Positions 35,761 to 56,683 of a stretch of 64,000 bases of DNA are shown one piece after another; the stretch's first letter is position 1, and each line of letters opens with the position of its first letter. The notes under the pieces were generated by a model that was given only the letters and a program-made list of their open reading frames with translations, searched no databases and was not told the DNA's origin. The stretch spans positions 2,629,925-2,693,924 of the forward strand of contig OZ244909.1 of the NCBI GenBank assembly GCA_965221725.1, read 5' to 3'. Position numbers and translations under genes: made by a program. The DNA comes from Gammaproteobacteria bacterium. GTDB taxonomy: Bacteria; Pseudomonadota; Gammaproteobacteria; HK1.

Positions 35761-35809
35761 CCGGATTCTCTGGCAGAATCGAATCTCCCCGAGAGGTGTT
35801 TCTTCGACC

Positions 35810-37218: not shown

Positions 37219-37332
37219 CCCGCACCAATCCGCGCCCGCAGGACTTGCTTCCGGGTGATGTGCGCCGGCGCGGAAGCGTCTGGATGGTCGGGAGCGTTCG
37301 CGGCGCCCGGACGCGAACCGGGCAATGGCCAG

Positions 37333-38619
37333 TCAGCGCATCGGCACCGGCCGGCCGTCGGCGCCATCCCATGCGACCCCGAGGAAGTCGAGGATGGTAG
37401 GCGCGATGTCCACCGCGCACGTGGGGGCCTCGATACGGTGCACCTCGCCGGAGCCGTCGTCGACAATCAGCATCGCATTCGTCTCGTAGCGGCCGAGGCC
37501 GCCATGCTGGCCGCGCCCCGGCCCGTCGATGCTCGAGAACCGGCAACCGGCGACGTGGGAGATCCCCGGGACGCCGAACCGGTTCGGGGCGTCCACCCTG
37601 GCCATCGAAAACGCGATGGCGAGACCACCGTCCTCGCGCTGTCCCACCCTGGCCAGGGCGTCGCCCGCGAACACCGGGCCGCACCACGGCTGGTGCTGGA
37701 GCCAGCCCACGATGTCGTCGCGTCGCGAGGCCGCGCGGTCGGCCAGGTAGACGAGTGCGCCCATGCCGCTCGATGCGAACACGACATCGGTCGATTCGGC
37801 GTCCGCCTTGAGTCCCGCCCCGATCATCAGGTTCTCGACGGGAACGACCCGATCCGTCGTCTCGTGCCCATGATCCGAGCAGACCACCAGCAGCACCTCC
37901 TCGCCCCGATCGCGCATGCGGCCGACCGCGGCGACAACGTCCGCCACATTCGCGTCCGCCGCATGCACCAGCGCGCGATGCTCGGGCGAGCCGAGCTCCA
38001 TGACGTGCTGGGAATGGTCGGGTTCGCAGAGCCAGAGCGTGTGCAGAGCATGTCCGCCGGGGGCGTCGAGCGCGGCGCAGAACCGGTGGGTGGTCTCACG
38101 GTCGCCAGCGGCGTCATAGGTGACGTCGAGATGCTCCGGCCCTTCCACCGGCGCGAAGCCCGGACGGTGCGAGCCGCTGCGGTGCAGCAGCAGACCGTGC
38201 CCGTTCGGATCCTGCATGTGGGCGGCGCCGGCCGAGGAGTTGAGCCAGCCCGCCGCTCCGCCGTGATCGCGAAGTCGCTCGCTCAGCGTGGGCCGGCGGA
38301 GCGTGCGTCCCGTCGCGCGGCGCAGCCGTTCGCGAAACGTTGATGGCCCCACCGGGACGGGAACGAGCCCGCTTCCTTCATCGAGGGCGATGACGTTGCC
38401 GTGCAGTCCGTGCGAGGCGGGAAAGCACCCGGTCGCGAGCGACGCGGAGTTCACCCGGGTCGCGGAGGGGAAGACGGAACGGTGATGCGGGTACCAGCGC
38501 GCGGCGGTCGCGAGCCGGTGCAGGTTGGGGGCGCGCGCTTCGTCCACATGGTCGCCGCGCAGACCGTCGACCACGACGTGAACCACACGCCGTTCGACCG
38601 AAGCGCGGGTACCGCCCAT
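37333..38619 (-). CDS. Alkaline phosphatase superfamily protein (type I phosphodiesterase/nucleotide pyrophosphatase)
   Basis: VVVDGLRGD, FPSATRVNSASLATG, EPDHSQH, CSDHGH and GQHGG. Confidence 0.85.
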   Translation of the reverse strand: MGGTRASVERRVVHVVVDGLRGDHVDEARAPNLHRLATAARWYPHHRSVFPSATRVNSASLATGCFPASHGLHGNVIALDEGSGLVPVPVGPSTFRERLRRATGRTLRRPTLSERLRDHGGAAGWLNSSAGAAHMQDPNGHGLLLHRSGSHRPGFAPVEGPEHLDVTYDAAGDRETTHRFCAALDAPGGHALHTLWLCEPDHSQHVMELGSPEHRALVHAADANVADVVAAVGRMRDRGEEVLLVVCSDHGHETTDRVVPVENLMIGAGLKADAESTDVVFASSGMGALVYLADRAASRRDDIVGWLQHQPWCGPVFAGDALARVGQREDGGLAIAFSMARVDAPNRFGVPGISHVAGCRFSSIDGPGRGQHGGLGRYETNAMLIVDDGSGEVHRIEAPTCAVDIAPTILDFLGVAWDGADGRPVPMR

Positions 38620-38627
38620 CCCGAAGC

Positions 38628-39932
38628 TCAGAAGAAACGCACCAACGCGAGCTGGATGTAGTCGTCCCGACGAAGCGGGGCCATCGGGTCGTCACGCTCG
38701 ACGCCGTTCCAGGCCCGTGCCTCCAGCTCGACCCTCCAGTCGTCGCGCACGCGCCGCGAGGCCTCGAGGGTGAGAGCGGTTGCATCGCCTTCGGCATCGG
38801 CGACGACCGCCGCCACGAGTTCGGTGCCCGCCTCGTCGTTGAGCCCGAGCCGCACGCCGGCGAAGAGGTCGTTCTCGAGAGGGTGCGGCGCGCGTCCCCC
38901 ACGCCCGTCGAACAGGTGCTCCACGAGCAGCCCCAGATCGCTGTCGCTCCCGCGGATGCCGAACCATGTGTATTCGAACCCGGCGACCCACGCGAGGTAG
39001 GCATCTCCCTGCCCCGACTGATGGAGCAGCTCCGCCTTCCACAGCATGGCTTCCTTCGTCGCCTGGAGATCGAGCGAAGTGCGCTGCACGACGTCGTAGT
39101 GGGGCGTCAGGACCACCTCCGCCGGAGACGCTGGCGACGATCCGGCGCCAGGGCACCCCGGCCGCGGCGCCGGTTGTCCATCGGCGCACAAGCTCAGGGG
39201 CAGCAGCCGCGGCTCGCGACTCGTGCCGTGGAAGTGCGCCACGCCGATATCGAAATCCCCGAACGCGTGCGACCAGCGCACCGCGAAGTCGACGCGCTCG
39301 CGGCCCGCCCCCGACTCATGGGTGGCGCGGCTCGTGTCGACGAAGGGCTCGGAACGCAGGCGCCCCTCGCGTCCCGGGTAGGTCCGCTCGCGGAATCCCG
39401 GGAGCACGAAGAGATCGAGCACGCCCCAGTCTCGGGCGAGGGAGAGGTTGACGAGCGGCTGGCCCAGCTTGTCTTCGAGGTCGACGTTCTCCACGAGGTC
39501 CGTCTGGTTGATGACGTCGACGAGATGGTAGGACTCGGTGACGCCCCAGAACACGCGACCGATGCCGGCGCGCAGTTCGAAGTCGTCGAAGACCCGCTGG
39601 TACATCAGCTCCCGCACGTCGAAGTGCGTGCGCCGGTCATCGGCCGAATCGACACGCAGGAACGGCGTGAACACCAGGCTCTGCGCGTCGTCGAAGGCGT
39701 GGTAGAGCTCCGGCTGGACCGCGAACGACAGGCCATGGTGCGTCTGGGGAGGATGTTCGGGTGCGTGCAGGAAGACGCGCGGCTCGATTTCCACCCGGCC
39801 GCTCATCTCGAGGGCGCCGAGCGGAGGTGTGATTGCCAGCAGCGAAACCGCGGCGAGCATGATCCGGGTCGGCGCCAAGCCCGACGCGAAGGTCCTGCGA
39901 GCGCCCCCCGACTCGGCATTCATGGCATGCAT
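38628..39932 (-). CDS. Putative outer-membrane beta-barrel protein (family usually found with MMPL + LolA-like genes)
   Basis: Signal-peptide-like N-terminus, RTHFDVREL, GIGRVFWGVTES, VDVINQTD, alternating amphipathic strands and a C-terminal Phe (LVRFF). Confidence 0.7.
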   Translation of the reverse strand: MHAMNAESGGARRTFASGLAPTRIMLAAVSLLAITPPLGALEMSGRVEIEPRVFLHAPEHPPQTHHGLSFAVQPELYHAFDDAQSLVFTPFLRVDSADDRRTHFDVRELMYQRVFDDFELRAGIGRVFWGVTESYHLVDVINQTDLVENVDLEDKLGQPLVNLSLARDWGVLDLFVLPGFRERTYPGREGRLRSEPFVDTSRATHESGAGRERVDFAVRWSHAFGDFDIGVAHFHGTSREPRLLPLSLCADGQPAPRPGCPGAGSSPASPAEVVLTPHYDVVQRTSLDLQATKEAMLWKAELLHQSGQGDAYLAWVAGFEYTWFGIRGSDSDLGLLVEHLFDGRGGRAPHPLENDLFAGVRLGLNDEAGTELVAAVVADAEGDATALTLEASRRVRDDWRVELEARAWNGVERDDPMAPLRRDDYIQLALVRFF

Positions 39933-40042
39933 TCCCGCCGTGCGCGGTGGCGAGCATGATCCGAGCCTGCGCCAGACCCGATGCGAGGTTCCTGCGAGCA
40001 CCCGCCGGCCTGGTAGTCATTGCATGCATTCCCGCCGCGCGC
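39852..40042. repeat. Imperfect tandem duplication, period 97 bp, covering the translation start and signal-peptide N-region of the OM protein gene
   Basis: GGCGAGCATGATCCG at 39852 and 39949; GCATGCATTCCCGCCG at 39925 and 40022. The copies encode MHAMNAESGGARRTFASGLAPTRIMLA and MHAMTTRPAGARRNLASGLAQARIMLA in different frames. Confidence 0.85.
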
Positions 40043-40158
40043 GTCCCGGATGCGCGCACACGGGAGTTGCGCGGCAGTCCTTGCGCGAGACACGGCCAGC
40101 GGATCGAACCCCGTTCCGCGCCGCGTCATCTCGGGAGCCATCTCGATCCCGGCAAACA

Positions 40159-40944
40159 TCACCGGGCTCGCTTGAGCGCGTTGCGATCGAAGTCCCGGTC
40201 GGTGAGTCCGGTGTTCAGACGGTAGTCTTTCCACTCGATCCGGGTGCTCTTGCCGGTCCGGTCGTTCGCCATGTGCATCACGTCGGGACGCCAGAACCGG
40301 TCGAGATACTGACGGTAGCCTTCGATCGTGAGCGTCTTCAGCAGCGTATTCCTGCGATCGTAATACTCTGTCTTGACGATCCGCCAGATCTCCTGGTCGA
40401 TCCATACCACCTGGCGGGTGTATCCGGAGTGTTCGTACTGGGGGAAGTACTCCACCACCATGGTCTGCCTCCCATCGAGCTCTTCGTCGCGCAGCCACTT
40501 GTAGCGAAACTTGTCCACCTCCTGTGACGCAAGGTCCTCGTAGGCGAATTCGCTGCCCATGAACGACCCCGACTTGTTTCTCGACGAGATCCGCTTGACC
40601 CGCTTCAGCGCCGGCAGGTAGAGCCACTGGTCGTCCGGCTTCGTGGCATGCGTATGGCTCAGGAAGGCGGTGCCCTTCACATCCCGCGGGCTTTCGAACC
40701 GGGACAGGCTCTTGTCCCCGTCGCCCTCGACCTCCAGGGTGCTGATGCGAAGCTCGCGACGGCTTTCCTGTCCCTGCCGGTTGCGCAGGGTCATGACCAG
40801 ACTGGCGCGCTGGTCCTTCCAGCCGCTGTCCCGGCGTTCCATCTCCGTGACGATCGCCAGGCCCTTCTCCTCCGGTGTCTGCGCATGTGCGGCGGGCACC
40901 GGAGCGACGGTAAGCAGCACGATCGGCAGAAGTATCGTCTTCAC
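40159..40944 (-). CDS. Outer-membrane lipoprotein-sorting (LolA-like, DUF1329) periplasmic protein
   Basis: GTG start with GGAGG, signal peptide, FESPRDVKGTAFL, DDQWLYLPALKRVKRIS and SFMGSEFAYEDL. Confidence 0.88.
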   Translation of the reverse strand: MKTILLPIVLLTVAPVPAAHAQTPEEKGLAIVTEMERRDSGWKDQRASLVMTLRNRQGQESRRELRISTLEVEGDGDKSLSRFESPRDVKGTAFLSHTHATKPDDQWLYLPALKRVKRISSRNKSGSFMGSEFAYEDLASQEVDKFRYKWLRDEELDGRQTMVVEYFPQYEHSGYTRQVVWIDQEIWRIVKTEYYDRRNTLLKTLTIEGYRQYLDRFWRPDVMHMANDRTGKSTRIEWKDYRLNTGLTDRDFDRNALKRAR

Positions 40945-41045
40945 TCCAGGCCTCCTTCGACAATCTCGAGTGTGGCAGCCGGCGTGCGCGGGCCGCGGAG
41001 CGCTGAACGCGCCGCAAGCGCGTGGATAGCGGGGAGTGGCGCGAA

Positions 41046-42119
41046 TCATCTTCCGATGCCCGAAGCCGCTGCCTGCCCGACGCGGGGAAGACCACGAGCA
41101 AAAGCCGCGAAGAGGAGCTTCAGGGCCGAGTCCGAGCGCACCAGAGCGCTGGTGACGATAACGACGCCCTTTACGCTGGTGCGCGAGATCTTCACCTCCT
41201 GGCCGTTGCTGAAGTGCGGCGTGGCATGAATCCGGCGCAGCGTCAGAACTGCCATGCCCAGTGCCCACAGGCAGTGGCGGCGAATTCCCGTCTCGTGAGC
41301 AGGAATGAGCAAGGTATACCGCAGCGCGTTCGCAAGGTGCTGGCGCGCAACGGCCACCAGTTCGAAGAGTCCCTTCACGAACCTCGGATCCGCCTGACCC
41401 GGAGACAACGAACTCAAATCGAACCCGAAGGAGGAAAAGACGTCCCGCGGCAACCAGCAGACGCCACGTTCGTGATCGTCCCACATGTCCTTGAGTATGT
41501 TGGTCATCTGCAACCCCTGCCCGAAGGATGTGGCCAACGCAAGCATCTCCTCGCGTCGAGCGCGGATCTCATCGGAATAATCGCAGAACAGTTCCGTGAG
41601 CATTTCACCGACCACGCCGGCGACGTGGTAGCAGTAGCGATCCATCTCGGGAAGATCGCTCAGACCCTCCAGGCTTGCCTCCTGCTGGAATTCCGCCATC
41701 CCGCGTTTCATGGTGCGCACGCAGCGCTCCATGGCGGCGCGCTGTGCCGAAGAGAATCCGTGGGTGATCCTCACCACGCGGTCGATGTTCGCGACGAGAT
41801 CCCGCTCGCTGCGGGTTGTCGCTGGTGACAAGAGTGCGGTCAGCTCTCGCGCGAACGCTTCCACATCGTCTTCGTGACCTTCCACGATGGTGATGAAGCG
41901 CTGGAAGTATTCCTCTTTCAACCCCGGTGACAACGCGGGTTCGTCCTCGATGGTGTCGGCGATTCTGCAAAGCAGGTAGGCATTCGCTACCGCATCGCGT
42001 AACGGGTTTGGCAGTTGCGGGATGGTGAAGGCGAACGTGCGGGAGACACCCTGCAGGATGTCCGTCTGGTAGGCGAGATCCCGCCCATGCGACGCGGTGC
42101 AGGAAGTGGCATTGGCCAT
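41046..42119 (-). CDS. sqs: Squalene synthase (single-enzyme, farnesyl-diphosphate farnesyltransferase type)
   Basis: [39 protein letters not shown] and [12 protein letters not shown] (SQS signature); sterol-gene context. Start taken at MANATS. Confidence 0.85.
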
Positions 42120-42287
42120 GAGCTTTTCGTCGTGAGAGATGCTTTCCGGATTCCGAGGTGCGCGTGCCAGCGGCCTCCGCCGGAGGTTCTCGAATCCGGC
42201 CCCTTCCGGTGCGGGCAGACCGATGGTTTCACGCACGAAAGAATACAGTCAAGGCACAGCACCCGACAACACCGATCCTGGCGAGCG

Positions 42288-42316
42288 TTGACAGGTTCCG
42301 ACCGCATGGATAGGGT
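42288..42316 (+). promoter_or_regulatory. Candidate sigma70 promoter for the MMPL gene
   Basis: TTGACA (42288-42293)-17 bp-TAGGGT (42311-42316), 50 nt upstream of ATG 42366. Confidence 0.5.
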
Positions 42317-42365
42317 TCGCAGACCTCCGCCTTCGCGGAGACACCGATCGGGCGGATTCTGCGCC

Positions 42366-44681
42366 ATGTCATTGAAATCGGATTTTTTCGATCTGGTCGT
42401 AGGCCGGCACTGGTTGACGACATTCGCCACTCTGGTGGTGGTCGCGATCCTTGCGGCGGGGATGCAGTACCTGATCGTTGTCGATGTAGGCATCCGAAAT
42501 CACTTCAGTGGCGATGATCCGCATTTGGTCAAGCTGGAAAACTTCGAAGAAACCTATGCGGTATCCGACAGCGTCCTGGTCGTTGCCGCCCCACCGGACG
42601 ACACGGTTTTCACCCGCGAGACGTTGGGTGCAATCGAGCGATTGACAGAGGCGCTGTGGCAGACGCCCTATGCGACTCGTGTCGATTCGATCACCAACTA
42701 CTCGCATTCGGAAGGAAATGAAGAAGGCCTGGTAGTCGAACCGTTGGTCGACGATGCCGCCTTGCTTGATGATGATCAACTCGACCGGGTGCGAACGATT
42801 GCCCTCACCACACAGGATACGGCCGGGCGCTTCGTCTCTCTCGACGGGCGCCTGGCCGGGCTGATCGTCAGTCTCATACTTCCCGATGACGGCCGGGAGC
42901 AGAAAAAAGCCGAAGTGGTCGACGCTCTCTACGACCTCGTCGACGCGCAGAGCACAGCCAATCCCGAAATCGAATATCACATCTATGGCGAGTTGTTGCT
43001 TGATCAAACCATTCGGGAGGCGCTGAATGAGGACATGTCAGTCCTTGCGCCGATTGCGTTTGCGACGATGATGCTGGTTGCCATTCTGGTGCTGCGTTCG
43101 GTATGGGGCGTTCTGGGAATTCTGGTGATGTTGATCGCCGTGATGATATCCGGTTTCGGATTTGCCGGTTGGTTCGGATTGAAATTCTACGGCGAGAGTG
43201 GCGCGGCACTATTCGTGCTGATGGCGATTGCCGTCGCCCATTCAGTCCATCTGATTCAGGGGGTGATGAACGGAATGCGTAGCGGGATGGAACGCAAGGC
43301 TGCGACGATTCATTCGCTGCAGATCAATGCCCGCCCCATCTTTCTGACTTCCGTGACCACCGCAATCGGTTTTCTGAGTCTGAATTTCTCGGAGATGCCG
43401 CCTTTCCGGGTGATGGGCAACATCGTTGCTTTTGGCGCCATGTGCGCATTCGTCTATGCGGTCACGCTTCTGCCGGCTCTGCTGTCGATGATGCCCATGC
43501 GGGCACCAGCCATGAAAAAGGAGGGAGTCGAGTTCTTAGAGCATCTGGGAAATTTCGTGACTTCCAACGGCACCATCCTGCTCTGGATTTTTGCCATTTT
43601 GTCGGTGGTCAGCGCAATCGGGGTTTCGAGAATCGAGCTGGACGACAACAATCTCCAGTTGCTGGAAGAAAGCTACGAACTGCGTCAGTCTGCTGATTTC
43701 ATCAGCGAAAATTTTTCAGGACTGGATACATTCGAATATTCGCTGAGTTCCGGGCGCGAAGGGGGAATTACCGACGTCTCGTACCTGAATCAGGTCGATG
43801 CATTCGCTGATTGGCTCCGCGACCAACCAGAGGTTTCCCACGTCACTGCGGTGACCGATGTGCTGAAGCGGTTGAATCGGAATCTGAACGGCGATGTGGA
43901 CGGCTCCTATATCCTCCCGGAAAGCTCGGATCTTGCGGCGCAATATCTGCTTCTCTACGAGTTTTCTCTCCCGGTGGGACTCGATCTGAACAATCTCATC
44001 GACTTTGACCGTTCAGCGACTCGCATGACGGTCGTGGTTGAAGCGATGTCGGTTAGAGAACAAATCGAATTCGACGAACGAGCCTCCGCCTGGTTGCGGG
44101 AGAACGCACCACAGATCGGAACCGGAGCAACCGGAGTGACCATCGTCAGTGCCTATTCGGTGATGAGGAATATCGTCAAGATGCTGATTGGCACCGTCAT
44201 TGCGATGTCAATTGTCTCGCTCATTCTCGTTTTTGTTTTCAAGAGCGTGTGGCTCGGACTCCTGAGCTTGATACCGAACTTCCTGCCGGCCATCATGGCG
44301 ATGGGGGTTTGGGGATACACTGTGGGAACCGTCAGTGTCGCAGCGTCGATTGTGACCGCGATCGCATTCGGCATCATCGTGGATGACACCATTCACTTGT
44401 TGTCCAAGTACCTGAGATCACGTGGTGAGGGCAAGTCACCCACGGAGGCAATCGTGCCGACCTTCAAGCTCGTCGGGAGGCCGTTGTTGACCACCACCTT
44501 GATTTTCGCGCTGGGGTTTCTGGTATTCGGCGCGTCGGGGCTTGCGACCAATCAGACCCTTGGGGTGCTGGTGGGGCTCACGGTCGTCATCGCGCTGATG
44601 GCGGACTTCCTCCTCTTTCCCCCCCTGCTGGTAGCCCTTGACAAGACCAAAGCATTGGTGACTCGCACAGCGACGCATTAG
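42366..44681 (+). CDS. MMPL-family RND transporter (candidate sterol exporter)
   Basis: Two repeats of TM + periplasmic domain + 5 TM; motifs TTAIGFLSL and GIIVDDTIH. Divergent from sqs, convergent with the DHCR24-like gene. Confidence 0.9.
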   Translation: MSLKSDFFDLVVGRHWLTTFATLVVVAILAAGMQYLIVVDVGIRNHFSGDDPHLVKLENFEETYAVSDSVLVVAAPPDDTVFTRETLGAIERLTEALWQTPYATRVDSITNYSHSEGNEEGLVVEPLVDDAALLDDDQLDRVRTIALTTQDTAGRFVSLDGRLAGLIVSLILPDDGREQKKAEVVDALYDLVDAQSTANPEIEYHIYGELLLDQTIREALNEDMSVLAPIAFATMMLVAILVLRSVWGVLGILVMLIAVMISGFGFAGWFGLKFYGESGAALFVLMAIAVAHSVHLIQGVMNGMRSGMERKAATIHSLQINARPIFLTSVTTAIGFLSLNFSEMPPFRVMGNIVAFGAMCAFVYAVTLLPALLSMMPMRAPAMKKEGVEFLEHLGNFVTSNGTILLWIFAILSVVSAIGVSRIELDDNNLQLLEESYELRQSADFISENFSGLDTFEYSLSSGREGGITDVSYLNQVDAFADWLRDQPEVSHVTAVTDVLKRLNRNLNGDVDGSYILPESSDLAAQYLLLYEFSLPVGLDLNNLIDFDRSATRMTVVVEAMSVREQIEFDERASAWLRENAPQIGTGATGVTIVSAYSVMRNIVKMLIGTVIAMSIVSLILVFVFKSVWLGLLSLIPNFLPAIMAMGVWGYTVGTVSVAASIVTAIAFGIIVDDTIHLLSKYLRSRGEGKSPTEAIVPTFKLVGRPLLTTTLIFALGFLVFGASGLATNQTLGVLVGLTVVIALMADFLLFPPLLVALDKTKALVTRTATH

Positions 44682-48360: not shown

Positions 48361-48420
48361 GTCAACGGCATCCTTGGCTCGACCTGAAGCACTCCGGTTG
48401 CGGCAGCATCGGATGGCGAG

Positions 48421-51400
48421 TCAGACGGAAGCCAGCTCGATCCGGGGTGGTATCGTGTCTGTGGTGCTACCGGTGTTAGCGAGATTCTCCATTCGGCTCC
48501 GGCGGCGTTGCTCGTAGAGACCAAGAGCGTGCAGAGGAAAGTACTGCCGATAGAGGACATAGTCCAGAAGTGCGGTTCGGAAGAACACCCCTGCCATGTC
48601 CTGCTTGGGCCATGTTCCGTCGGGGCGTTGCATGTCGAGCAGGAAGTGGGCGCCGTGCGAAATCGCGGTCCAGTTGGATTCTCCCGCCTCGATGAGCGCG
48701 ATCAGCGCCCATGCGGTCTGGATCACCTGGCTTTCCTCGTGCTGAACGTATCGGCCGGTCAGGCATCCGCTGTGGTGCTCGCCCCATCCGCCGTCTTCCC
48801 GCTGGCGCCCCAGCAGCCAGTGACAGGCCGAACGAAGCGCCGGATCGCCGGGCTGGACCCCGGCGGCGAGGAGACCTCTGATCCCGAAGAGGGTGCCGTA
48901 AATGAACTGAATTCCCCATACGCCGCGCCACGATCCGTCTCTCTTCTGGGTTCGACGAAGCCAGACGGCAGCCCGAGAGACGGCTCTGGAGATAATATCC
49001 GTCATTATATCATCCGCTATCTCCGGCACATGCTCTCGACAAGCCGAGAGTGCCGCCAAGCAGGACCCCGTACATTCGACGAAGGAGTGCTCGGTCATCG
49101 ATTCGCCGAACATTTCGGCCGGGTTCAGCCACTCCAGACCGACGAGCGAGCGTCGTGCCTCGTAGCTGCCAAAGCCGCCATCGCGGTTTTGGCGGCGCAA
49201 CATGAACCTGACCGCTTCGCTCAGCGCGGCCGGATTCGATCTACCGCGTCCGGCGGCGACGATTCCGAGCACCGCCTCTGCGGTACAGTCGCTCACCGGC
49301 CACCCATGCCATCCGCCGGGGAAACACCAGCCGCCTTTGGGATCGGACCGATAGGCATCGCGGAATCCGTCGAAGCTGGTGCCGATCTGCTCTCTGAGCA
49401 GGAATTCGGCGCCGCGCTCAAGGGCATCCCGAGCCCCGTCGAACGTGGGAACCTCAGCCAGCGCCTGCAGCGCGAACCCGCTGTCCCATGAGGCACTTCT
49501 CGCTCCGGTGACACGCGCCCCCTGCTCCTCATCCTCCCAGATCCAGCCGTCCATTCGCGCCAGTGCCTGGTCGAGGTCGGCATCGTCCGGATCGCGCAGC
49601 CACAGGGCAAGCATGTTGAGAAGACCGCTGACTGGAGAGATGCTCGTATGATCGGTGGTCCGCAGCTCCCATTTGATCTGTCGGAGGATCTCTTCGGTGC
49701 ATCGGGCGCGCAAGCGCTCGCCGTGGAAGCGGTCTAACAGCCGCGCGAATCCGTACCCCGCCTTGAGCCACACACTCGGCCGCGCGAACAGATCCGCCTC
49801 CCGCAGGCACCCGCGGGCAGCGGAGAAATCCGCGCTGGCGAATCCTCGGGGGAACAGCTCTTCGCGTAGCGACGCGATCAAGGGGGTGACGGGCGCCTGG
49901 AACCGGTGCGCATAGATCACCGCCATCGCCATGTAGATGAGCCGCGTATGGCAGTACCAGTTCGAGGGGTGCAAGGGGACCCAGCGCGGCAGGCCCCACA
50001 GTTCCGGCAGGATGGCGTTGACTCCACGCCAGTCGTAGAGGTTGAGGAGCGCGAGCCAGAATTTCCCCCAGCTCGGAATCCCGATAATTCCTTCGGCCTG
50101 TATGAATCGAAGGGCCGGCCCGACCAGAGGGTCGTCTCGTTCGACGCCAAGCGACCGTGCCGCGACGTACACCAGCGCGGTGACGAAGAGCTGGGGCGGC
50201 GAGTGCTCGTGCATGCCCCACGCTCCCCCTTCGAGCCGACTCTGTTCGAAGAAGCGAAGCACATGCCGACGCCGGGTGGGTTCGAGCGGACGGCCGATGA
50301 TATGGTGCAGCAGCACATATTGCGCGGTCAGCATGGGACACCAGACCATCTCGCCCTCCCAGCCTCCGTCCTTGCTCTGAAGACTCAGAAGGCGATCGGC
50401 CGCGCTGCGCAATGCCGGACCGGCATCGGGCGATTCAACCTCCTTCGGCCGGTCGGACCTGGAGGCAACTCTCTCCGAGGCCATGGAGTGCAGAAACGCG
50501 CGGGCAAGATTGTACCGTACGCTCTCTTCCCTTTCCTTGCGCCCGGCTCTCACCTTGCGCAATTGCAGGGCCCCGCACATGAACCACCAGATACGGACGG
50601 TGAGCGCACGGAAGACGGTACTGAACCGATGCAAGGTGAGGCGGGGGGGACGGGACAGTGAAACTTCCCTGGCCAGTGCCCGGATCGCGGTTCCGGAAAA
50701 AGCGAGACTCATGCCGGCCACGGATCGGTCTTCGCATGCGAGGATCCGCGTGGTTCGATCGCGGTACCGAGCACTTGTCCGCCACCCCATATAGACGGCG
50801 TGTCGTAGTGCGTGCGCCTCGGCTCGATAATCGGCGAAGACTTCGTAGAGCCCCATGGCGAGCAACTCCGGCATGTGGGTATCCCGGAGCCGCCGGTTGG
50901 TGAAGTCGCGAAAGCTCTCGCTCTCGGCGAGGGCAAGCGCATCGCCGAAACCCAGGGTCATGCCGACCGCAGTCATGGGATGGTAGTGCCCGGCCGCGTC
51001 ACCGATCAGTACTCGATGCGAGTTCCCGTAGGCAGCGCGCGGCCGGAGTTGATTGGCCGCAAAGTGGAACTGCCTTGCCCGAATTGCTTCGACGAACTTC
51101 GATCTGAGCGCCTCCGGCATGAGATCGGCATAGGATTCCGTCAGAAAACCGACCCGGTCCCGTTTTGCCCAGCAATCCAACGGAACATCGATGATGATTC
51201 GGACGCAGCCATCCGCCACACTGTACGCGAGCACCGGGCCTGGTCCGCCGAGCAGTACATGGCCCTGGCCCTCGAAGGGCAAGTTCCCCCCCGTCAACGT
51301 GACCCCGACCATTCGCGAACAGTGAATGGGGTCTGTCGACAGCCCGAGCGATCGACGCACGGTCGAAGCCCGGCCGTCGGCGCCGACGATTCGCGCCGCG

Positions 51401-51873
51401 TTCAGGGTGTGCAAGGCGCCGTTGCAGCTATAGGTCAGCCGCTGGTCTTCAACCGCGGTGACCCGTGCCCTGGTGACAAAATCTATCGCCGCCTCGTCTT
51501 CGATGGCTTCCCGCAACTTCGAGACGAGCAACGTATGCTCGCATACCAGACCCTGGGAGCCTTTGGGGTAGGGAAGTGCGATCGGTTCCGATCCGTCTTC
51601 CGGGAACACCACGAATCCATTGCCGGCGGCGCTGCGGGGCAAGGTGTCGAGATCGATCCCGAGGTTACGCAGTATCCGCACGGCCGGCGGATGCAGCCAT
51701 TCGCCCGCCATGCGCTCGGCCGCCTTGGGGTTCGCCTCCAGCAGAGCGACGCGAGCGCCTCTTTGCGCGTGGGCCAGTGCACACACGTTCCCCACCGGCC
51801 CCGCGCCGACGATGACCACGTCGTAACACCGCGAAGCGGCGCCGTTCTCGGGAAGATGTCCGGCCGTGTTCAA
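48421..51873 (-). CDS. osc: Squalene epoxidase - oxidosqualene cyclase fusion (~1150 aa)
   Basis: FAD domain: VIVGAGPVG, GEWLHP and GDAAGHYHPMTAVGM. Cyclase: QW repeats (QSKDGGW, QNRDGGF, QKRDGSW, QREDGGWGE, QRPDGTW) and the OSC catalytic DCTAE (49276-49290). True start taken as TTG 51873 overlapping the cyp51 TGA. Confidence 0.92.
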   Translation of the reverse strand: MNTAGHLPENGAASRCYDVVIVGAGPVGNVCALAHAQRGARVALLEANPKAAERMAGEWLHPPAVRILRNLGIDLDTLPRSAAGNGFVVFPEDGSEPIALPYPKGSQGLVCEHTLLVSKLREAIEDEAAIDFVTRARVTAVEDQRLTYSCNGALHTLNAARIVGADGRASTVRRSLGLSTDPIHCSRMVGVTLTGGNLPFEGQGHVLLGGPGPVLAYSVADGCVRIIIDVPLDCWAKRDRVGFLTESYADLMPEALRSKFVEAIRARQFHFAANQLRPRAAYGNSHRVLIGDAAGHYHPMTAVGMTLGFGDALALAESESFRDFTNRRLRDTHMPELLAMGLYEVFADYRAEAHALRHAVYMGWRTSARYRDRTTRILACEDRSVAGMSLAFSGTAIRALAREVSLSRPPRLTLHRFSTVFRALTVRIWWFMCGALQLRKVRAGRKEREESVRYNLARAFLHSMASERVASRSDRPKEVESPDAGPALRSAADRLLSLQSKDGGWEGEMVWCPMLTAQYVLLHHIIGRPLEPTRRRHVLRFFEQSRLEGGAWGMHEHSPPQLFVTALVYVAARSLGVERDDPLVGPALRFIQAEGIIGIPSWGKFWLALLNLYDWRGVNAILPELWGLPRWVPLHPSNWYCHTRLIYMAMAVIYAHRFQAPVTPLIASLREELFPRGFASADFSAARGCLREADLFARPSVWLKAGYGFARLLDRFHGERLRARCTEEILRQIKWELRTTDHTSISPVSGLLNMLALWLRDPDDADLDQALARMDGWIWEDEEQGARVTGARSASWDSGFALQALAEVPTFDGARDALERGAEFLLREQIGTSFDGFRDAYRSDPKGGWCFPGGWHGWPVSDCTAEAVLGIVAAGRGRSNPAALSEAVRFMLRRQNRDGGFGSYEARRSLVGLEWLNPAEMFGESMTEHSFVECTGSCLAALSACREHVPEIADDIMTDIISRAVSRAAVWLRRTQKRDGSWRGVWGIQFIYGTLFGIRGLLAAGVQPGDPALRSACHWLLGRQREDGGWGEHHSGCLTGRYVQHEESQVIQTAWALIALIEAGESNWTAISHGAHFLLDMQRPDGTWPKQDMAGVFFRTALLDYVLYRQYFPLHALGLYEQRRRSRMENLANTGSTTDTIPPRIELASV

Positions 51874-53279
51874 CTGAATACACTCGGTTGCGCGCGGCGA
51901 CGGTAGGACACCCGGCACGGTGTCACTGGTCCTGTTACCCAGGTCCCGTAGTTCGGGGCAGGAAACTCCACCATCGGTTCGAAATCGAAGCGGTCGAGCA
52001 AGACCGTCCAGATCGCCTTGAGTTGCATCACGGCAAATTTCTCCCCCATGCACCGATGCTTCCCCCCGCCAAAGCCGATCAGGGTGTAGTGGTGCTGCTT
52101 GCCCTCGCTCCGGGGGGGGGCGAACCGCTCCGGATCGAAGCGTTCCGGATCGGCAAACACGTCGGACAGGCGATGCGACACCGCCGGAGAGATCATGGCC
52201 AGGGTCCCGGCCGGCACGGTGTGACCCGCATACTGCAACGATCGACGCACCTTGCGGACCAGCACGATCAGCGGCGGGTGCAGGCGCTCGCACTCGCGCA
52301 CCGTGCATTCGAGTGCCGTCTGCTTCTTGAGGCTCGCGAGACTCATGGCGCCTTCCTCTGCGTAGACCTCACGCATTTCGCCGCGGATCCGGGCTATCCA
52401 GTCCGGCGCACGGAACATCTCGAGCCCCATCCAGCTCGCAAGCACGGCGCTGGTATGCTGGCCGGCAAACAGCACTGTCAGCAAAAGCCCGATAATCTCG
52501 TCTTCGCTCAAGGCCCGACCATCCTTGTAACGGGCCTGCATGAGTGCCTGCATGAAATCTTCGGCTACGGTACCGGCCTCCCGGCGCCTCCTGATGATTC
52601 CGCCGAGGATCTCCGCAATCTTGCGTCGGGCCCGGTCACGTTTTCGATGCGCCGGGATAGGCAACCTCGGGAAGAAGAACCCGAGGAGGTTGATGCCCTC
52701 CTGTAGATCGTGATAGGCCTCGGCGAACCCCGAGTCCACCTGATCGCGGACTTCCTGGCCAAGCAGGCTGCGGCTGGCGATGTTGACGGTGAGCTTGTTC
52801 AGCGCCACCGGCAGGTCGATGGTCCCCTCCTCTCCGAGCGCATCGGCAAACCGACTGGCTTCGTCGTGCATGATGTGAGCATAGTTGCGCATCGGCGCGT
52901 CTCGCAGCGCCGGATACAGCAATGCCAACTGCTCCGCCATGACCTCGGGCGCGACATCGTAGGCGACACCACGTCCGAAGACGGGCACCGTGAACTGGTA
53001 GACGGCCCTGGCATCAAGCTGGTCCGCCGGCGCCCGGAAATAGCAATCGTGGGCCTCCAGCCCCGCAAACAGCACAAACCGGCGGGGGCCGAGCCTGAAG
53101 CTGACAAGCTCACCGTGTTCATGCTGGCAACGGTCGAGCATGGCTACCGGATCCTTTTGAAACTCCGGCAGGTGGCCGAGCAACGGCCAGCCACCGGAGA
53201 GTTCCGGAATCGATTTCCCCGTCGAGGAGGCGGACTGCGCTGAGCGCAGAGGCACTGCGATGTCGGACCGATTTGCCAT
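51870..53279 (-). CDS. cyp51: Sterol 14alpha-demethylase
   Basis: YQFTVPVFGRGVAYD (SRS1), LFAGQHTS (CYP51 I-helix), ECERLHPP and GFGGGKHRCMGE. Start taken at MANRSD. Confidence 0.93.
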   Translation of the reverse strand: MANRSDIAVPLRSAQSASSTGKSIPELSGGWPLLGHLPEFQKDPVAMLDRCQHEHGELVSFRLGPRRFVLFAGLEAHDCYFRAPADQLDARAVYQFTVPVFGRGVAYDVAPEVMAEQLALLYPALRDAPMRNYAHIMHDEASRFADALGEEGTIDLPVALNKLTVNIASRSLLGQEVRDQVDSGFAEAYHDLQEGINLLGFFFPRLPIPAHRKRDRARRKIAEILGGIIRRRREAGTVAEDFMQALMQARYKDGRALSEDEIIGLLLTVLFAGQHTSAVLASWMGLEMFRAPDWIARIRGEMREVYAEEGAMSLASLKKQTALECTVRECERLHPPLIVLVRKVRRSLQYAGHTVPAGTLAMISPAVSHRLSDVFADPERFDPERFAPPRSEGKQHHYTLIGFGGGKHRCMGEKFAVMQLKAIWTVLLDRFDFEPMVEFPAPNYGTWVTGPVTPCRVSYRRRAQPSVFS

Positions 53280-53287
53280 CTCTGTTC

Positions 53288-54400
53288 TCAATAGACAAAG
53301 GGGACCAGCGACCAGGGCACGCGCTTTCGGTAGCGCCCCCACAGCTCCCCGTACTTGGCGCGGCAGCGCCGCTCATCACGGCGCGCACGATGCCACAACA
53401 AACTTGCAAGCCACGCCGGCAACAGGAAGGGGATCCAGGACGCAAAACTGGTGGTCAGCACGAACGCGAGGTAGATGCAGATCTCGCCCGTGTAGTTGAG
53501 ATGTCGTGCGATCCCCCAGAACCCGGATACAAGCAGGCGCCCGTCGAGAGCTTGGGCGGGTTTGCCCCAGATCGTGATGGACGGGTCACGCTTGAAGCGA
53601 TGCTTTTGCCCGTTGGCGCCTCGGAACAACCAGAAGCCGAGCACGTACAGGAGCATGATCGCGACGGCCGCGAAAGGGCTCAACGGGGGACCGGATGCGT
53701 CGACCAGCCACCAGCCAGCGATGCAGTAGAAGAAGGGCACGAGCACGTAATCACCCCAGACGAGCATCCACCCGAAACGCTCGCTGACGATGTCCCAGGT
53801 ATGGATCATTCCGCCCTCGAACAGGAAGTAATTCAGTATGTACGCTATCGTCAGGAGCTGGTATAGGGCCATCGCCAGGGTCAGGTGGCCGTAGGTTTCG
53901 TATTGCACCACCGCGAAAGAAGCATTGAACAATGCCAGCCCGATGAGGGACGGGCGGTAGCTGAACAGCTTGAGATCGACCCCGAACCAGGCAGGGTTGA
54001 GTTCCACGCCGTAGAAGGCCCCGCGCCAGAATCCCGGCGGAGATTCGGTCTGCTCTCGGAGCTGCTTGCGGGTGCCTTGCCAATACAGCCAGCCGGAAAT
54101 CGCGAACGCGAACAGGTTTGCAGCCACGAAGAGCGCGAAGAAATGCGTATACAGGGACGACAGGGAGAACACGTCCAAGACCTGTGCAATGCCTGCCACC
54201 AGCGCGGTGAGCAGCAGCAGCGTCAGGCCGTTGAGCTTGTAGGTGACCGATATTCCGCCGAGGTCCGGCCCCTTGACCCGGCGCCCCGGCAGGAGCGCCG
54301 AGCCCACGAACAAGGCCCCGATGAAGACGGCTGTCATCACCGCCGCCTCGATCAGCAGCCCGCCCGAAAGGGGGGGGATCGGCAGAGGCAGATTAGGCAT
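53288..54400 (-). CDS. ERG4/ERG24-family sterol reductase (probably Delta14-reductase)
   Basis: YKLNG, GVELNP, DIVSERFGWMLVWGD, VPFFY, ANGQKHRFK, LLVSGFWGIARHLNYTGE and HRARRDERRCRAKYG. Confidence 0.9.
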   Translation of the reverse strand: MPNLPLPIPPLSGGLLIEAAVMTAVFIGALFVGSALLPGRRVKGPDLGGISVTYKLNGLTLLLLTALVAGIAQVLDVFSLSSLYTHFFALFVAANLFAFAISGWLYWQGTRKQLREQTESPPGFWRGAFYGVELNPAWFGVDLKLFSYRPSLIGLALFNASFAVVQYETYGHLTLAMALYQLLTIAYILNYFLFEGGMIHTWDIVSERFGWMLVWGDYVLVPFFYCIAGWWLVDASGPPLSPFAAVAIMLLYVLGFWLFRGANGQKHRFKRDPSITIWGKPAQALDGRLLVSGFWGIARHLNYTGEICIYLAFVLTTSFASWIPFLLPAWLASLLWHRARRDERRCRAKYGELWGRYRKRVPWSLVPFVY

Positions 54401-54410
54401 CGGTGTTTCC

Positions 54411-55532
54411 TTATGCGACCTCTGCCACCGCCGGTTCGGGGCTCGGCACCGCGCTCTTCTTCTCCCTGTCCAGATACTCCTGCCACTTGCGCACCGTCAC
54501 ATGCTGAAACGCAGGCACCACCCGGTTGAATTCGAGGGTACGGGCGTCCCAGTGCTGCTCATACCCCTCCTGTTCGGCTTCCAGCGCGAACCCGTCCTCG
54601 CAGAGCAGCGGACCGATGAGCACCCGGTTGGAGATCCTCATCACCACGTCCATTGCGAACCGGGGGATATGTATCGGCACCAGCGGGATCTTCAGGGACT
54701 TGAAATAGAACAGAAAGAATGCCCGCGTGGTGCGCTCGTTGATGGGCAGGACGAAGAGCCAGTGCTTGATCGCCTCATCGGTGTTCGACCACTGGTAGGG
54801 ATATTCGTAGCAGAGCTTCATCGAATTGGTGTCGATTCGGTTGCGATCGACGAACAATCCGGAAATGCGGCCGCGACCGACGCTCGTGTCGTAATCGACA
54901 TGCACGTTGTCGCCGATCGTCTCGCATCTCGTGAGCTGGGCGCCTTCGAACGGACGGTAGCGGCGGTGCAGCCAGGCGTGACTGAAGTCGCTGACGTTGT
55001 CGATCACCATCGAGTGGTGGGCCGACCAAGTGAAATTCAGTGGTACACAGGCCCACCGACCGGGACCTTCAAGCTCGGGAATCTCGGGAATACGGCGTAT
55101 TTCGGCGAGTTCCGGATTCCCGGGAAACATCCAGACCAGTCCGTAGCGCACTTTCACGGGATAGGTTCGGATGGAGACGTCCGGCAAGCCTCGCTCGGGG
55201 AGTTCGTGTGCGGCTTCGGCCAGCTTTCCGTCCGGACCGTACTTCCATCCGTGGTAGGCGCATACGAGCCGGCAGCCCTCTACCGCGCCGATTGAAAGCT
55301 TTAGCTGGCGATGTGCGCAGCGATTGTCCATGGCGTGAAACGAACCATCCGTGGCCCGAAACAGCGCAATCGAGTGCTTCCAGAAAATGACTTCGACGAC
55401 GGTCCCCGGCTTCATGTTGCGCACTTCCTCGACCGCATACCAGTAGTCGGGATCCATACCCGTGGCACGCACCTTCTGGCGTAGGTTGCTGGCTTCCTCG
55501 AAGCCGGGCGGACGCGATGATACGGGGGTCAT
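54411..55532 (-). CDS. sdmA: Rieske-type sterol C4-methyl oxygenase (SdmA-like)
   Basis: Rieske CAH...CAYHGW, mononuclear Fe DNVSDFSHAWLH...ED, and YPYQ...HWLFVLP..ERTTRAFF. Resembles Methylococcus SdmA as recalled; paired with an SdmB-like gene. Confidence 0.82.
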   Translation of the reverse strand: MTPVSSRPPGFEEASNLRQKVRATGMDPDYWYAVEEVRNMKPGTVVEVIFWKHSIALFRATDGSFHAMDNRCAHRQLKLSIGAVEGCRLVCAYHGWKYGPDGKLAEAAHELPERGLPDVSIRTYPVKVRYGLVWMFPGNPELAEIRRIPEIPELEGPGRWACVPLNFTWSAHHSMVIDNVSDFSHAWLHRRYRPFEGAQLTRCETIGDNVHVDYDTSVGRGRISGLFVDRNRIDTNSMKLCYEYPYQWSNTDEAIKHWLFVLPINERTTRAFFLFYFKSLKIPLVPIHIPRFAMDVVMRISNRVLIGPLLCEDGFALEAEQEGYEQHWDARTLEFNRVVPAFQHVTVRKWQEYLDREKKSAVPSPEPAVAEVA

Positions 55533-56683
55533 GACGCACCTCCATCGGCTGTCATGTGTGGATGAGAGTCCGGCGCGGCATCCTCCGCCCGAGCTTTGCC
55601 GTTCGCACGGGGGAGGGGCTTCTTTGCCCGCGGATTGGTGATCGCCTTGCGCTCATGATAGTGGAACGCATACGCCTCGTGCACGGCGGCACGGATGGTC
55701 GTCGGCTGGTAGCCGAGTTCCCGTTTCGCCTTGTCCAGGTTGGCGTGACGGCACTTTTGCAGGAGCCGGATGGCGCCTGGTGTGAGTCGCTGGGGAAAGT
55801 CCGGGTGGAACCGGCTGAGATAGAAACTCGCCGCCTCCGAAAAGACATACATCAGGCCGGCTGGCATCCGCCGCCGAGGCCGCGGTTGTCCGGAGACCTC
55901 CTCGTACAGGTTCAGCAGATCGGAGATGGTCTTGTATTCGGTGCTGAAAATATATTTTTCGCCGGATCGGCCACGGTGCATGCAAAGCACATGTCCCGCG
56001 ACGATGTCCCCGACGGCAACGAACTCGAAGCCGCCATCGACGTACGCACGCAGCTTCCCGTTCGTGTAGTCGCACAACGTCCTTCCAAGACGCGACGGAG
56101 AGAAATCCGCGCCTCCGACGACTGCGCAGCAGGTTGCGACGACGATATCCTGCCCCTTCGCTGCGGCATGCCAGCATTCGTGCTCGACGAGCGACTTGCT
56201 TCGCTCGTAGGGCATCGTGCGTTCCATTGGATAGAACGGCATCGTCTCGTTGCTGGGAGCGGAAGGATTGTCCGGATCGTAGCCGACGGCGCTGAACGAG
56301 CCGGTGACCACCACCCGTCCGGCGTCCACTTCCCGGGCCGCCAGCAGCACGTTGCGGGTGCCGAGGACGTTGCACTCGAAGATCTCGCGTTGATGAGCGC
56401 GATTGCCCTCGATCGTGGAGATCTTTGCCGCGACATGATAGACGCCCCGGCAGCCCTTGATTGCACTCCGGGTGGCGTCAAGGTCCCGGAGATCACCGAA
56501 GGCGCGCTCCACTTCCAGACCTTCCATCGCCTGATTGTTGCTCTCGGGCCTCAGCAGCACGCGCACGCGAATACCGTCGGCGAGCAGGCGACGCACGAGG
56601 TTGGCGCCCACATGTCCGGTCGCACCGGTCACGAAGACTGGGGGTTCGGCCGAGTGGTGGATCTTGTTCAGCTCTGATTTCAA
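55529..56683 (-). CDS. sdmB: NAD(P)-dependent SDR, sterol C4 decarboxylase/3-ketoreductase (SdmB-like)
   Basis: VTGATGHVGANLVR, GDLRD, YxxxK (YERSK) and SRLGRT...LRAYV.GGFEFV; ATGA overlap with sdmA. Confidence 0.8.
   Translation of the reverse strand: MKSELNKIHHSAEPPVFVTGATGHVGANLVRRLLADGIRVRVLLRPESNNQAMEGLEVERAFGDLRDLDATRSAIKGCRGVYHVAAKISTIEGNRAHQREIFECNVLGTRNVLLAAREVDAGRVVVTGSFSAVGYDPDNPSAPSNETMPFYPMERTMPYERSKSLVEHECWHAAAKGQDIVVATCCAVVGGADFSPSRLGRTLCDYTNGKLRAYVDGGFEFVAVGDIVAGHVLCMHRGRSGEKYIFSTEYKTISDLLNLYEEVSGQPRPRRRMPAGLMYVFSEAASFYLSRFHPDFPQRLTPGAIRLLQKCRHANLDKAKRELGYQPTTIRAAVHEAYAFHYHERKAITNPRAKKPLPRANGKARAEDAAPDSHPHMTADGGAS

Follow-up and report, generated by a model that had tools for sequence, protein, structure and literature searches.

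A GPP34-P450 fusion gene in a sterol biosynthesis and transport cluster of a probable gammaproteobacterial sponge symbiont

A 64-kb stretch of gammaproteobacterial DNA (contig OZ244909.1; referred to below as the window) was found to carry, at positions 38628-56683, a cluster of genes for sterol biosynthesis and transport, among them a gene encoding a fusion of a GPP34 domain with a cytochrome P450 (GPP34-P450). Comparison of 81 loci linked GPP34-P450 genes to sterol-specific and RND transporter genes, a link that appears to be new. In a sister strain of the host the MMPL-DHCR24-GPP34-P450 block was replaced by a single sterol methyltransferase (SMT) gene, and this cassette swap also appears to be new. 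The value of the locus lies in these two observations, which tie a sponge-specific GPP34-P450 to sterol synthesis and export and reveal the exchange of its cassette for SMT; sponge-symbiont sterol clusters and GPP34-P450 have so far been treated separately. Sponge sterols serve as the oldest animal biomarkers, and the making or remodelling of them by bacterial symbionts is disputed. On the basis of gene content and neighbourhood, the cluster is probably a horizontally acquired one of the published msb/CSG type, in which GPP34-P450 would act at the membrane periphery as a sterol-tailoring enzyme and be coupled to the movement of sterols across the envelope.

The GPP34-P450 gene and its genomic neighbourhoods

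Comparison of the 81 loci relied on tblastn together with de novo clustering of the surrounding open reading frames (ORFs); counts refer to genes within 10 kb of GPP34-P450 unless stated otherwise. The protein had 993 homologues at E≤1e-10 and at least 580 relatives among GTDB species genomes, the best 80 of which came from metagenome-assembled genomes (MAGs) of Alpha- and Gammaproteobacteria, Acidobacteriota, Binatia, Latescibacterota, Chloroflexota, Gemmatimonadota, Nitrospirota, Actinobacteriota and Bacteroidota. A sterol-specific gene or an RND transporter gene was present in 74 of the 81 loci, any sterol-specific gene in 49 and any RND transporter in 67. SMT was found in 31 loci (within 500 bp in 27) and the squalene epoxidase-oxidosqualene cyclase (SE-OSC) gene in 15 (within 500 bp in 7), followed by ERG24 (8 loci), SdmA and SdmB (7 each), CYP51 (5) and DHCR24 (2). 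The transporters were MMPL proteins of 56-80% identity in 33 loci, 19 of them with the gene within 500 bp, divergent MMPL proteins with a sterol-sensing-domain match in 20, and proteins of the AcrB type in 14. By Pfam, 37 loci also contained a KshA-like Rieske oxygenase, and 23 contained an amine-oxidase-type flavoprotein. Since a 22-kb span corresponds to about 0.5% of a 4-Mb genome, the association with sterol and RND genes is, by this reasoning rather than by a formal statistic, far beyond chance. The initial annotation, made from the sequence of the window, had suggested that the P450 could make an undescribed steroid; the neighbourhood evidence strengthens that idea.

Recurrent gene series were observed at these loci. 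Proteobacterial loci shared the series P450, DUF1329, DUF1302-like and MMPL, and Chloroflexota loci the series flavoprotein, Rieske, P450, SMT and MMPL. The order sdmB-sdmA-ERG24-CYP51-lanosterol synthase was common to the window and loci L001, L004, L006, L012 and L076. The five-gene Chloroflexota module (around positions 10001-12000 in L042, L047, L048, L053, L059, L067, L081 and others) consisted of the amine-oxidase-type flavoprotein, the KshA-like Rieske protein, GPP34-P450, SMT and an MMPL protein with a sterol-sensing-domain match, and in some of these loci two ERG24-like paralogues (31-36% identity) lay upstream. Two nearby GPP34-P450 paralogues, 50-66% identical to the window protein, were found in each of two Arenicellales genomes (L006, 1946-3955 and 10001-12007; L076, 7282-9300 and 10001-12019), where the region also contained MMPL and the sdmB-sdmA-erg24-cyp51 block.

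By its architecture the window protein is a member of the published GPP34_L family, which comprises 656 proteins, all from sponge symbionts (PMC11706023); the earlier view of the P450 as a one-off tailoring enzyme was thus not sustained. The GPP34 domain covers approximately residues 1-215 and the P450 domain residues 235-672 (Pfam matches at 10-193 and 485-655, respectively), and both domains were common to all 119 full-coverage sequences in the top 120 homologues. The haem motif YGLGTHMCVG with Cys613, the ExxR residues E534/R537 and the PERF-like R590 were invariant in 61 sequences, and the acid-alcohol position of the I helix was Q477-S478 instead of E/D-T. A confident AlphaFold (AF2) two-domain model had a predicted local distance difference test (pLDDT) score of 85.4 and a predicted template modelling (pTM) score of 0.82. 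PDB sequence and Foldseek searches gave generic E-class P450s only (CYP51, CYP120, CYP184A1, CYP3A, BM3 and CYP11B2; 15-19% identity over the Foldseek alignments), and assignment to a known steroid-hydroxylase family (CYP125/142/124, CYP46, CYP11 or CYP7) was unsupported; as judged by these sequence and fold searches, GPP34-P450 would constitute a new CYP family. An exact-sequence look-up of the protein returned no record, and no signal peptide or transmembrane segment was present in the sequence of its N-terminus. The ratio of nonsynonymous to synonymous substitution (dN/dS) of the gene was 0.098 when compared to L001, a JGI metagenome contig.

The GPP34 domain was distantly Vps74-like (PDB 2zii, E = 0.003). 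In Vps74, residues W88, R97, K178 and R181 make up the pocket for phosphatidylinositol 4-phosphate (PI4P) (PMC2806290). In the marginal HMMER alignment at this E value, which did not extend to K178 and R181, W88 fell in an 8-residue segment that is absent from the window protein and R97 aligned to E29, a variable column; this weakly disfavours a canonical PI4P site in GPP34-P450.

Predicted sterol pathway, cassette exchange and transport genes

Pfam and NCBIfam profile searches together with an ORF listing located all of the gene families named in the initial annotation, intact, at 38628-56683 (Table 1). These were squalene synthase (SQS), the SE-OSC fusion with its DCTAE motif, CYP51, ERG24-like, sdmA, sdmB, DHCR24-like, a second P450 and an MMPL transporter, and the linkage of an RND/MMPL transporter to the sterol genes was likewise confirmed in the window. 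The genes from sdmB to DHCR24 lie on a single strand with overlaps or short gaps, as had been described. One overlap, TTGA, joins the stop of cyp51 to a TTG, the likely start of SE-OSC. GPP34-P450 has the same orientation as both of its neighbours and lies 60 bp from SE-OSC and approximately 113 bp from DHCR24, and the MMPL gene is convergent with DHCR24. The earlier placement of sqs at the left end did not hold: the region 38628-41000 contains two genes that had not been named, one for an outer-membrane protein of DUF1302-like type and one for a periplasmic protein of DUF1329/LolA-like type. The ORF at 38628-40001 was rejected as sqs; it has no SQS_PSY domain, and SQS sits at 41046-42236, with a likely start near 42116 that yields 356 aa and matches the gene calls of L001 and of the sister contig, L082.

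From this enzyme set the predicted product agreed with the earlier one, namely a lanosterol-derived sterol that is 14-demethylated, Delta14-reduced, C4-demethylated and Delta24-reduced. SQS would convert farnesyl diphosphate to squalene, which the SE-OSC fusion would convert through oxidosqualene to lanosterol. CYP51 would then remove the 14alpha-methyl group to give 4,4-dimethylcholesta-8,14,24-trienol, ERG24 would reduce Delta14 to give the 8,24-dienol, the SdmA/SdmB-like pair would remove one or two C-4 methyl groups, and DHCR24 would saturate Delta24. These steps would leave a 4-methyl- or 4-desmethyl-cholest-8-enol as the expected core. In agreement with the earlier account, SMT, Delta8-7 isomerase, C5-desaturase and DHCR7 were absent from the 64-kb window by Pfam scans and the gene calls of the sister contig.

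The N-terminal part of SE-OSC matched human squalene monooxygenase (PDB 6c6n, 2.6e-25) and its cyclase part matched human lanosterol synthase (PDB 1w6k, 1.6e-126). Both parts are encoded in one ORF, with the SE/FAD_binding_3 domains at residues ~13-360 and the OSC domain at ~490-1120; the L001 gene call is 1146 aa long. The DCTAE motif was located at 49276-49290, and alignment to 1w6k revealed the sequence VSDCTAE, a Val at human position 453 and at least four Q-x3-G-x-W (QW) motifs. Val453 is the field's marker residue for a lanosterol over a cycloartenol product (PMC10152446). With these canonical features the designation of the cyclase as atypical was not upheld; judged on sequence, it is unusual solely as a fusion, and the fusion has already been published as MsbE (PMC7074536). 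The best PDB match of CYP51 was Methylococcus capsulatus CYP51 (6mcw, 4.8e-107, residues 45-487); CYP51s from mycobacteria, protists and human came next. Homologues of the FAD_binding_4 protein with 47-61% identity carry the JGI name delta24-sterol reductase, and a fungal protein was 46% identical; by annotation, the protein is taken to be DHCR24.

It is very improbable that the cluster makes a non-sterol triterpenoid, or that it is decaying or inactive, with the cyclase or the P450 giving an unrelated product or none. The residues Ala and His at human positions 381 and 449 of the cyclase (1w6k alignment), which correspond to neither the lanosterol-type nor the full cycloartenol-type set, would be consistent with such an explanation. 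It is opposed by the intact VSDCTAE sequence, Val453 and QW motifs, and by the presence of CYP51, ERG24, SdmAB and DHCR24, all of which need a lanosterol- or cycloartenol-type tetracycle. Furthermore, the ORFs are all intact, dN/dS was 0.10-0.25 in all nine genes compared between the window and L001, and the same cluster was present at 246-536x word depth in independent samples.

The sister contig was 97.6% identical to the window over 28229-42359 (blastn), and the match resumed at 48365. In place of window positions 42360-48364 the sister contig has a single SMT gene (343 aa, Sterol_MT_C domain) on the opposite strand. The left breakpoint precedes the start codon of MMPL or SMT by 6 nt, and the right breakpoint lies past that of the P450 gene by 4 nt, or past the SMT stop by 7 nt. 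The MMPL-DHCR24-GPP34-P450 block and SMT are therefore alternative cassettes exchanged between conserved flanks, with boundaries at the ORF edges. The cassette of the window is low in GC (0.53 vs 0.68). Contigs from three independent runs (X1, X3 and X5) covered both cassette junctions with zero differences and covered 40000-52000 without differences, with word depths of 246x and 536x, which indicates that the arrangement is not an assembly artefact and that the bacterium is abundant in those samples. L001 has the arrangement of the window over 16.4 kb at 90% nucleotide identity, with SE-OSC at 92.8% (full alignment).

Identity between the sister contig (19080-21425) and the window (48365-50699) was only 89% inside SE-OSC, compared to 97.6% in the flank, so the recombination tract that brought the cassette probably reaches into the core sterol genes. 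Because the cassette differs between the strains, it may set the fate of the sterol side chain. The gene content suggests that the two strain variants handle the Delta24 bond alternatively, by SMT methylation at C-24 or by DHCR24 reduction and P450 oxidation.

The MMPL protein had weak Patched and sterol-sensing-domain matches in Pfam. Its best NCBIfam match was TIGR00921 HAE3 (3.4e-50; 170.9 bits vs a cut-off of 351.9 bits), and the HpnN match (2.7e-32) was also below cut-off; HpnN and BstA are MMPL-family lipid transporters (PMC10942540). The LolA-like/DUF1329 protein has a signal peptide that ends in AHA before QTPEEK, and the L001 gene call is 258 aa. Eight of ten relatives of the outer-membrane candidate matched DUF1302 weakly (best E 1.3e-4), a PDB profile search with the candidate was without match, and in 9 loci its gene kept synteny with those for the LolA-like and MMPL proteins. 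HAE3, DUF1329 and DUF1302 proteins make up the AmeABCD architecture (PMC6394551), and in Pseudomonas co-fitness of DUF1302, DUF1329 and RND pump genes has been reported (bioRxiv 10.1101/2020.07.04.188060). By family composition the transporter set of the window seems to resemble an Ame-type HAE3 system, which appears to be new. We propose HAE3, DUF1329 and DUF1302-like proteins as a new set for trans-envelope sterol trafficking.

Host, known systems and alternative roles

The host is probably an uncultured high-GC gammaproteobacterial sponge symbiont and the cluster appears to be chromosomal. The flanking DegP protein had a 100% match on a 670-kb ENA contig, and relatives of DegP at ~80% identity are named as Thiotrichales or Gammaproteobacteria MAGs. 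A myxobacterial or methanotroph origin was rejected, as the flanking DegP and the sister contig indicate sponge-associated Gammaproteobacteria. Runs with coded organism names contained 98-100% of the cluster k-mers, and those labelled 'sponge metagenome' contained 5%. For every cluster gene the best relatives were from MAGs that, as judged by name or isolate label, are of the kind produced in sponge-microbiome studies, and relatives at 59-82% identity occurred in MAGs of about 10 phyla, many of them with labels of this kind. The GC content at third codon positions (GC3) was 0.85 in genes of the host, the DUF1329 and DUF1302-like ones among them, and 0.75-0.82 in SQS and the core sterol genes; in the cassette it fell to 0.69 for MMPL, 0.65 for DHCR24 and 0.57 for GPP34-P450, which has the most foreign composition in the window. 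These GC3 steps, the transposase at the cluster edge and the drop in identity to the sister contig point to a horizontally acquired, mosaic cluster.

The statement that such pathways are rare in bacteria is outdated for the sponge habitat, since 115 of 537 Ircinia MAGs, spanning 10 phyla, were reported to carry such clusters (PMC9531527). Near-identical cluster types have been published as genomic predictions, although no product has been characterised, so that one part of the earlier concern over an already characterised cluster and product was upheld and the other was not. The cluster is best regarded as a variant of the msb/CSG kind and not as a rare or unique pathway. The msb locus (MT026193; Mohanty et al. 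2020, PMC7074536) was described from the sponge Melophlus sarasinorum, where it belongs to a gammaproteobacterial symbiont, a host like that of the window. By published gene order, it encodes an NAD(P) oxidoreductase, a Rieske protein, an integral-membrane sterol reductase, CYP51 and an SE/lanosterol cyclase fusion with the lanosterol-type Val, in the same order. In contrast to the window, msb ends in SMT (msbF), as does the sister contig, and its SQS gene is on another scaffold; in place of SMT the window has MMPL-DHCR24-GPP34-P450, then the SQS, DUF1329 and DUF1302-like genes. The Ircinia CSGs (Kelly et al. 2022, PMC9531527) are reported to show horizontal transfer among 10 phyla and purifying selection, and to be absent from Tara Oceans MAGs. 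They share the ERG24-CYP51-LSS core, upstream counterparts of SdmB ('DFR') and SdmA (a hypothetical protein), and the phylum spread and constraint seen in the loci compared here; SMT or FDFT1 lies on the opposite strand downstream of the core. GPP34-P450, MMPL, DUF1329, DUF1302-like, DHCR24 and the cassette swap are not in that paper, in which SdmA/B were, by its own statement, unannotated.

Other systems share parts of the cluster. The BstA/BstB/BstC system of M. capsulatus (Zhai et al. 2024, PMC10942540) has a related CYP51, C-4 demethylation of the SdmAB type and an HpnN-like MMPL inner-membrane transporter encoded with the sterol genes, and an outer-membrane route is proposed in both. Its partners are the Phosphonate-bd protein BstB and BstC, whereas those in the window are DUF1329/LolA-like and DUF1302-like; the periplasmic partner was not a PF12974 protein, and searches of the window gave no BstC-like gene. 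The window also differs from M. capsulatus in having ERG24 and not the NTF2-type 8,14-Bsr (PMC13277303), a CYP51 without ferredoxin fusion, a fused SE-OSC, DHCR24 and an extra P450. AmeABCD of Castellaniella defragrans (PMC6394551) and the Pseudomonas group resemble the window in their HAE3 RND, DUF1329 LolA-superfamily and DUF1302 proteins and their hydrophobic isoprenoid or lipid substrates. In contrast, the window has no AmeC/BNR-type fourth component, its outer-membrane protein is weakly DUF1302-like through relatives, and the cargo is presumed to be a sterol instead of monoterpenes or fatty esters. The cholesterol pathways of myxobacteria (Enhygromyxa salina, Minicystis and Sandaracinus; PMC12004948) likewise have CYP51, a C-14 reductase, SdmAB and C-24 reduction. 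They belong to another phylum and habitat, no EBP, C-5 desaturase or DHCR7 was found in the window, and C-24 reduction there is attributed to a eukaryote-type DHCR24, compared to a GGR homologue in some Myxococcota.

The GPP34_L study (Microbiome 2025, PMC11706023) described a two-domain architecture, length class and many-phyla distribution like those found here, with expression in Aplysina aerophoba metatranscriptomes, and proposed that GPP34_L is a secreted PI4P-binding effector that evades phagocytosis by blocking phagosome maturation. The words 'sterol' and 'MMPL' occur zero times in that paper, in contrast to the location of the gene here in sterol operons and beside RND lipid pumps. A search of the accessible literature found no paper that connects GPP34 with sterols in sponges, and the supplements of Brown et al. 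were without mention of P450 or MMPL.

In the reading that we consider probable, GPP34-P450 would be a cytoplasmic haem monooxygenase, tethered at the inner face of the membrane by a GPP34 domain that stands in for the membrane anchor of eukaryotic P450s, and would oxidise a membrane-embedded sterol. The product would pass to the HAE3/MMPL pump, the DUF1329 LolA-like periplasmic carrier and the DUF1302-like outer-membrane protein, with either direction of transport possible, and if exported would reach the outer membrane or the sponge mesohyl. If the P450 acts on sterols, it would represent a new CYP family with an unprecedented membrane-targeting domain. The location of the gene inside sterol synthesis and lipid-export genes points to sterol tailoring over the published host-manipulation idea. 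That a secreted, eukaryote-like GPP34-P450 binds host PI4P and blocks phagosome maturation, its position in a sterol cluster reflecting hitch-hiking on a mobile 'symbiosis' region, is improbable: the sequence has no signal peptide, a haem P450 that requires electron supply would be an odd secretion cargo, and the marginal alignment lacks the W88 segment and places a variable Glu at R97. The tight same-strand position between SE-OSC and DHCR24, the sterol gene or RND lipid pump in 74 loci and the SMT gene within 500 bp in 27 also argue against hitch-hiking. The effector proposal draws support from the reported exclusiveness of GPP34_L to sponge symbionts and its expression in situ (PMC11706023), from the homology of the domain to Vps74/GOLPH3 (Pfam 5.3e-24; 2zii E 0.003), from the clear mobility and foreign composition of the gene, and from the loci without a sterol-specific neighbour.

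Sponges are sterol-rich hosts, and GPP34-P450 with its RND partner may instead take up, modify or degrade host-derived sterols and be merely parked by biosynthetic genes; we regard this as rather unlikely. Many loci combine the P450 with SMT, the KshA-like Rieske protein, the amine-oxidase-type flavoprotein and MMPL and have no cyclase within 10 kb, which together with the catabolism-like neighbours in L002 (see below) and the possibility of RND transport in either direction would fit such a role. The cyclases may, in turn, sit elsewhere in those genomes, as CSGs are reported in the same phyla (PMC9531527). A full de novo pathway lies around or beside the gene in the window, L001, L004, L006, L012, L022, L068 and L076, SE-OSC is the immediate neighbour in 7 loci, and none of the 9,10-seco pathway genes (KstD, HsaA-D) was seen in the window; these observations favour the tailoring of a sterol made by the symbiont.

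Several results weigh against the sterol-tailoring and trafficking role. No sterol-specific gene was found within 10 kb in 32 of the 81 loci, and in L002 (GCA_900197615.1, FZLR01000001.1; 1-9100) the P450 and MMPL genes lie beside steroid-catabolism-like genes, namely those for a Rieske ring hydroxylase, enoyl-CoA hydratase, thiolase and a ChsH2-type zf/OB-SDR protein. DHCR24-P450 was rejected as a recurrent unit because the two genes were paired only in L001 and L037. The scores of the SdmA-like protein to NF052579 SdmA (1.1e-120, 402.9 bits) and of the SdmB-like protein to NF052578 SdmB (7.9e-89, 298.6 bits) were under the 600-bit equivalog cut-offs; both proteins are apparently homologues and not equivalog-level members of these Methylococcales-trained models, which were the top matches by a wide margin and full-length. 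No ferredoxin or reductase gene was found in the cluster, and the generic 15-19% P450 matches mean that regiochemistry is not inferable by homology. The outer-membrane candidate itself matched no Pfam or NCBIfam family, including DUF1302, and at this locus the sister strain retains the genes for the DUF1329 and DUF1302-like proteins but has no MMPL. One metatranscriptome, made up of tiny runs, gave no sequence on the cluster.

A further and more tentative proposal, which is doubtful at present, is that GPP34-P450 has spread horizontally through sponge symbionts of more than ten phyla, occurs nowhere else and makes a symbiont-specific oxysterol, which RND, DUF1329 and DUF1302 proteins place on the cell surface or release, enabling recognition or tolerance by sponge cells, with cassette swaps tuning the signal. 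If true, this would bring together under one mechanism the sterol clusters, GPP34_L and the dispute over where unusual sponge sterols and sterane biomarkers come from. For the sterol-tailoring role itself, the presence of the fusion in sterol operons, its usual adjacency to SMT or RND genes and the SMT cassette exchange in one lineage make a concrete hypothesis testable with the existing E. coli lanosterol platform, and they suggest that sterol side chains vary between symbiont strains.

Gene content and other features of the window

The longest ORFs were too long for SE-OSC, MMPL, SQS, DHCR24 and the LolA-like gene, and were trimmed against the L001 gene calls. The cluster is bounded directly upstream of sdmB by a transposase gene.

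Table 1. Genes and segments of the sterol cluster, with positions in the window and supporting profile matches (E values)
Feature	Position	Strand	Details
DUF1302-like outer-membrane protein candidate, divergent	38628-39932	-	434 aa; N-terminal signal-like segment; C-terminal ...VRFF
LolA-like/DUF1329 (TP_0789-like) periplasmic protein	40159-40941	-	~260 aa; Pfam LolA_like 1.2e-64, DUF1329 8.9e-11
Squalene synthase (SQS)	41046-42236	-	SQS_PSY 1.5e-59; DTIED motif and second 10-residue motif
Variable 6-kb cassette (MMPL, DHCR24, GPP34-P450)	42360-48364		GC 0.53
RND transporter, MMPL/HAE3 family, HpnN/BstA-like	42366-44681	+	771 aa; Pfam MMPL 1.4e-32
DHCR24-type Delta24-sterol reductase	44678-46228	-	516 aa; FAD_binding_4 6.7e-12; ORF extends to 46345
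GPP34-P450 fusion	46342-48360	-	672 aa; Pfam GPP34 5.3e-24, p450 4.5e-30
SE-OSC fusion	48421-51873	-	~1150 aa; SE, FAD_binding_3, SQHop_cyclase_N, SQHop_cyclase_C; TIGR03463 2.8e-220
CYP51 sterol 14alpha-demethylase	51870-53282	-	~470 aa; no ferredoxin fusion; p450 7.4e-61
ERG24-type Delta14-sterol reductase	53288-54400	-	ERG4_ERG24 7.4e-73; PDB 4quv 3.5e-70
SdmA-like Rieske oxygenase (C-4 methyl oxidation)	54411-55532	-	Rieske and VanA_C domains
SdmB-like NAD(P)-dependent SDR (C-4 decarboxylating dehydrogenase/reductase)	55529-56683	-	Epimerase and 3Beta_HSD domains
ISAs1-type DDE transposase, cluster edge	56763-57887	-	DDE_Tnp_1_assoc 3.8e-32, DDE_Tnp_1 6.3e-20

A scan for promoters and terminators gave sites that were no more frequent than in shuffled sequence. 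A 97-bp unit was present in two tandem copies (82% match) at 39852-40043, an interval that takes in the beginning of the DUF1302-like gene and the spacer upstream of it, and the same pair of copies was found in L001 and L082. Orthologues of DHCR24 with 72-83% identity were located alone among housekeeping genes in L083 (10001-11560) and L084 (10001-11563), which are from other genomes of the same ENA samples; they adjoin the ATP synthase operon or aconitase, which suggests that DHCR24 also spreads as a single gene.

Two defence loci lie outside the cluster. At 1616-5365 on the minus strand is a gene for a 1249-aa Type IIG/Type ISP restriction-modification enzyme (Pfam Type_ISP_C and N6_Mtase; PADLOC REase_MTase_IIG 1.1e-78). 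An 18-kb defence island at 9284-27210, absent from the sister contig, contains a complete type I BREX system (BrxL, PglZ, PglX, BrxC, BrxB and BrxA), with a SIR2-HerA pair between PglZ and PglX and a short AAA/Abi_C gene between PglX and BrxC; its GC content falls to 0.55-0.62.

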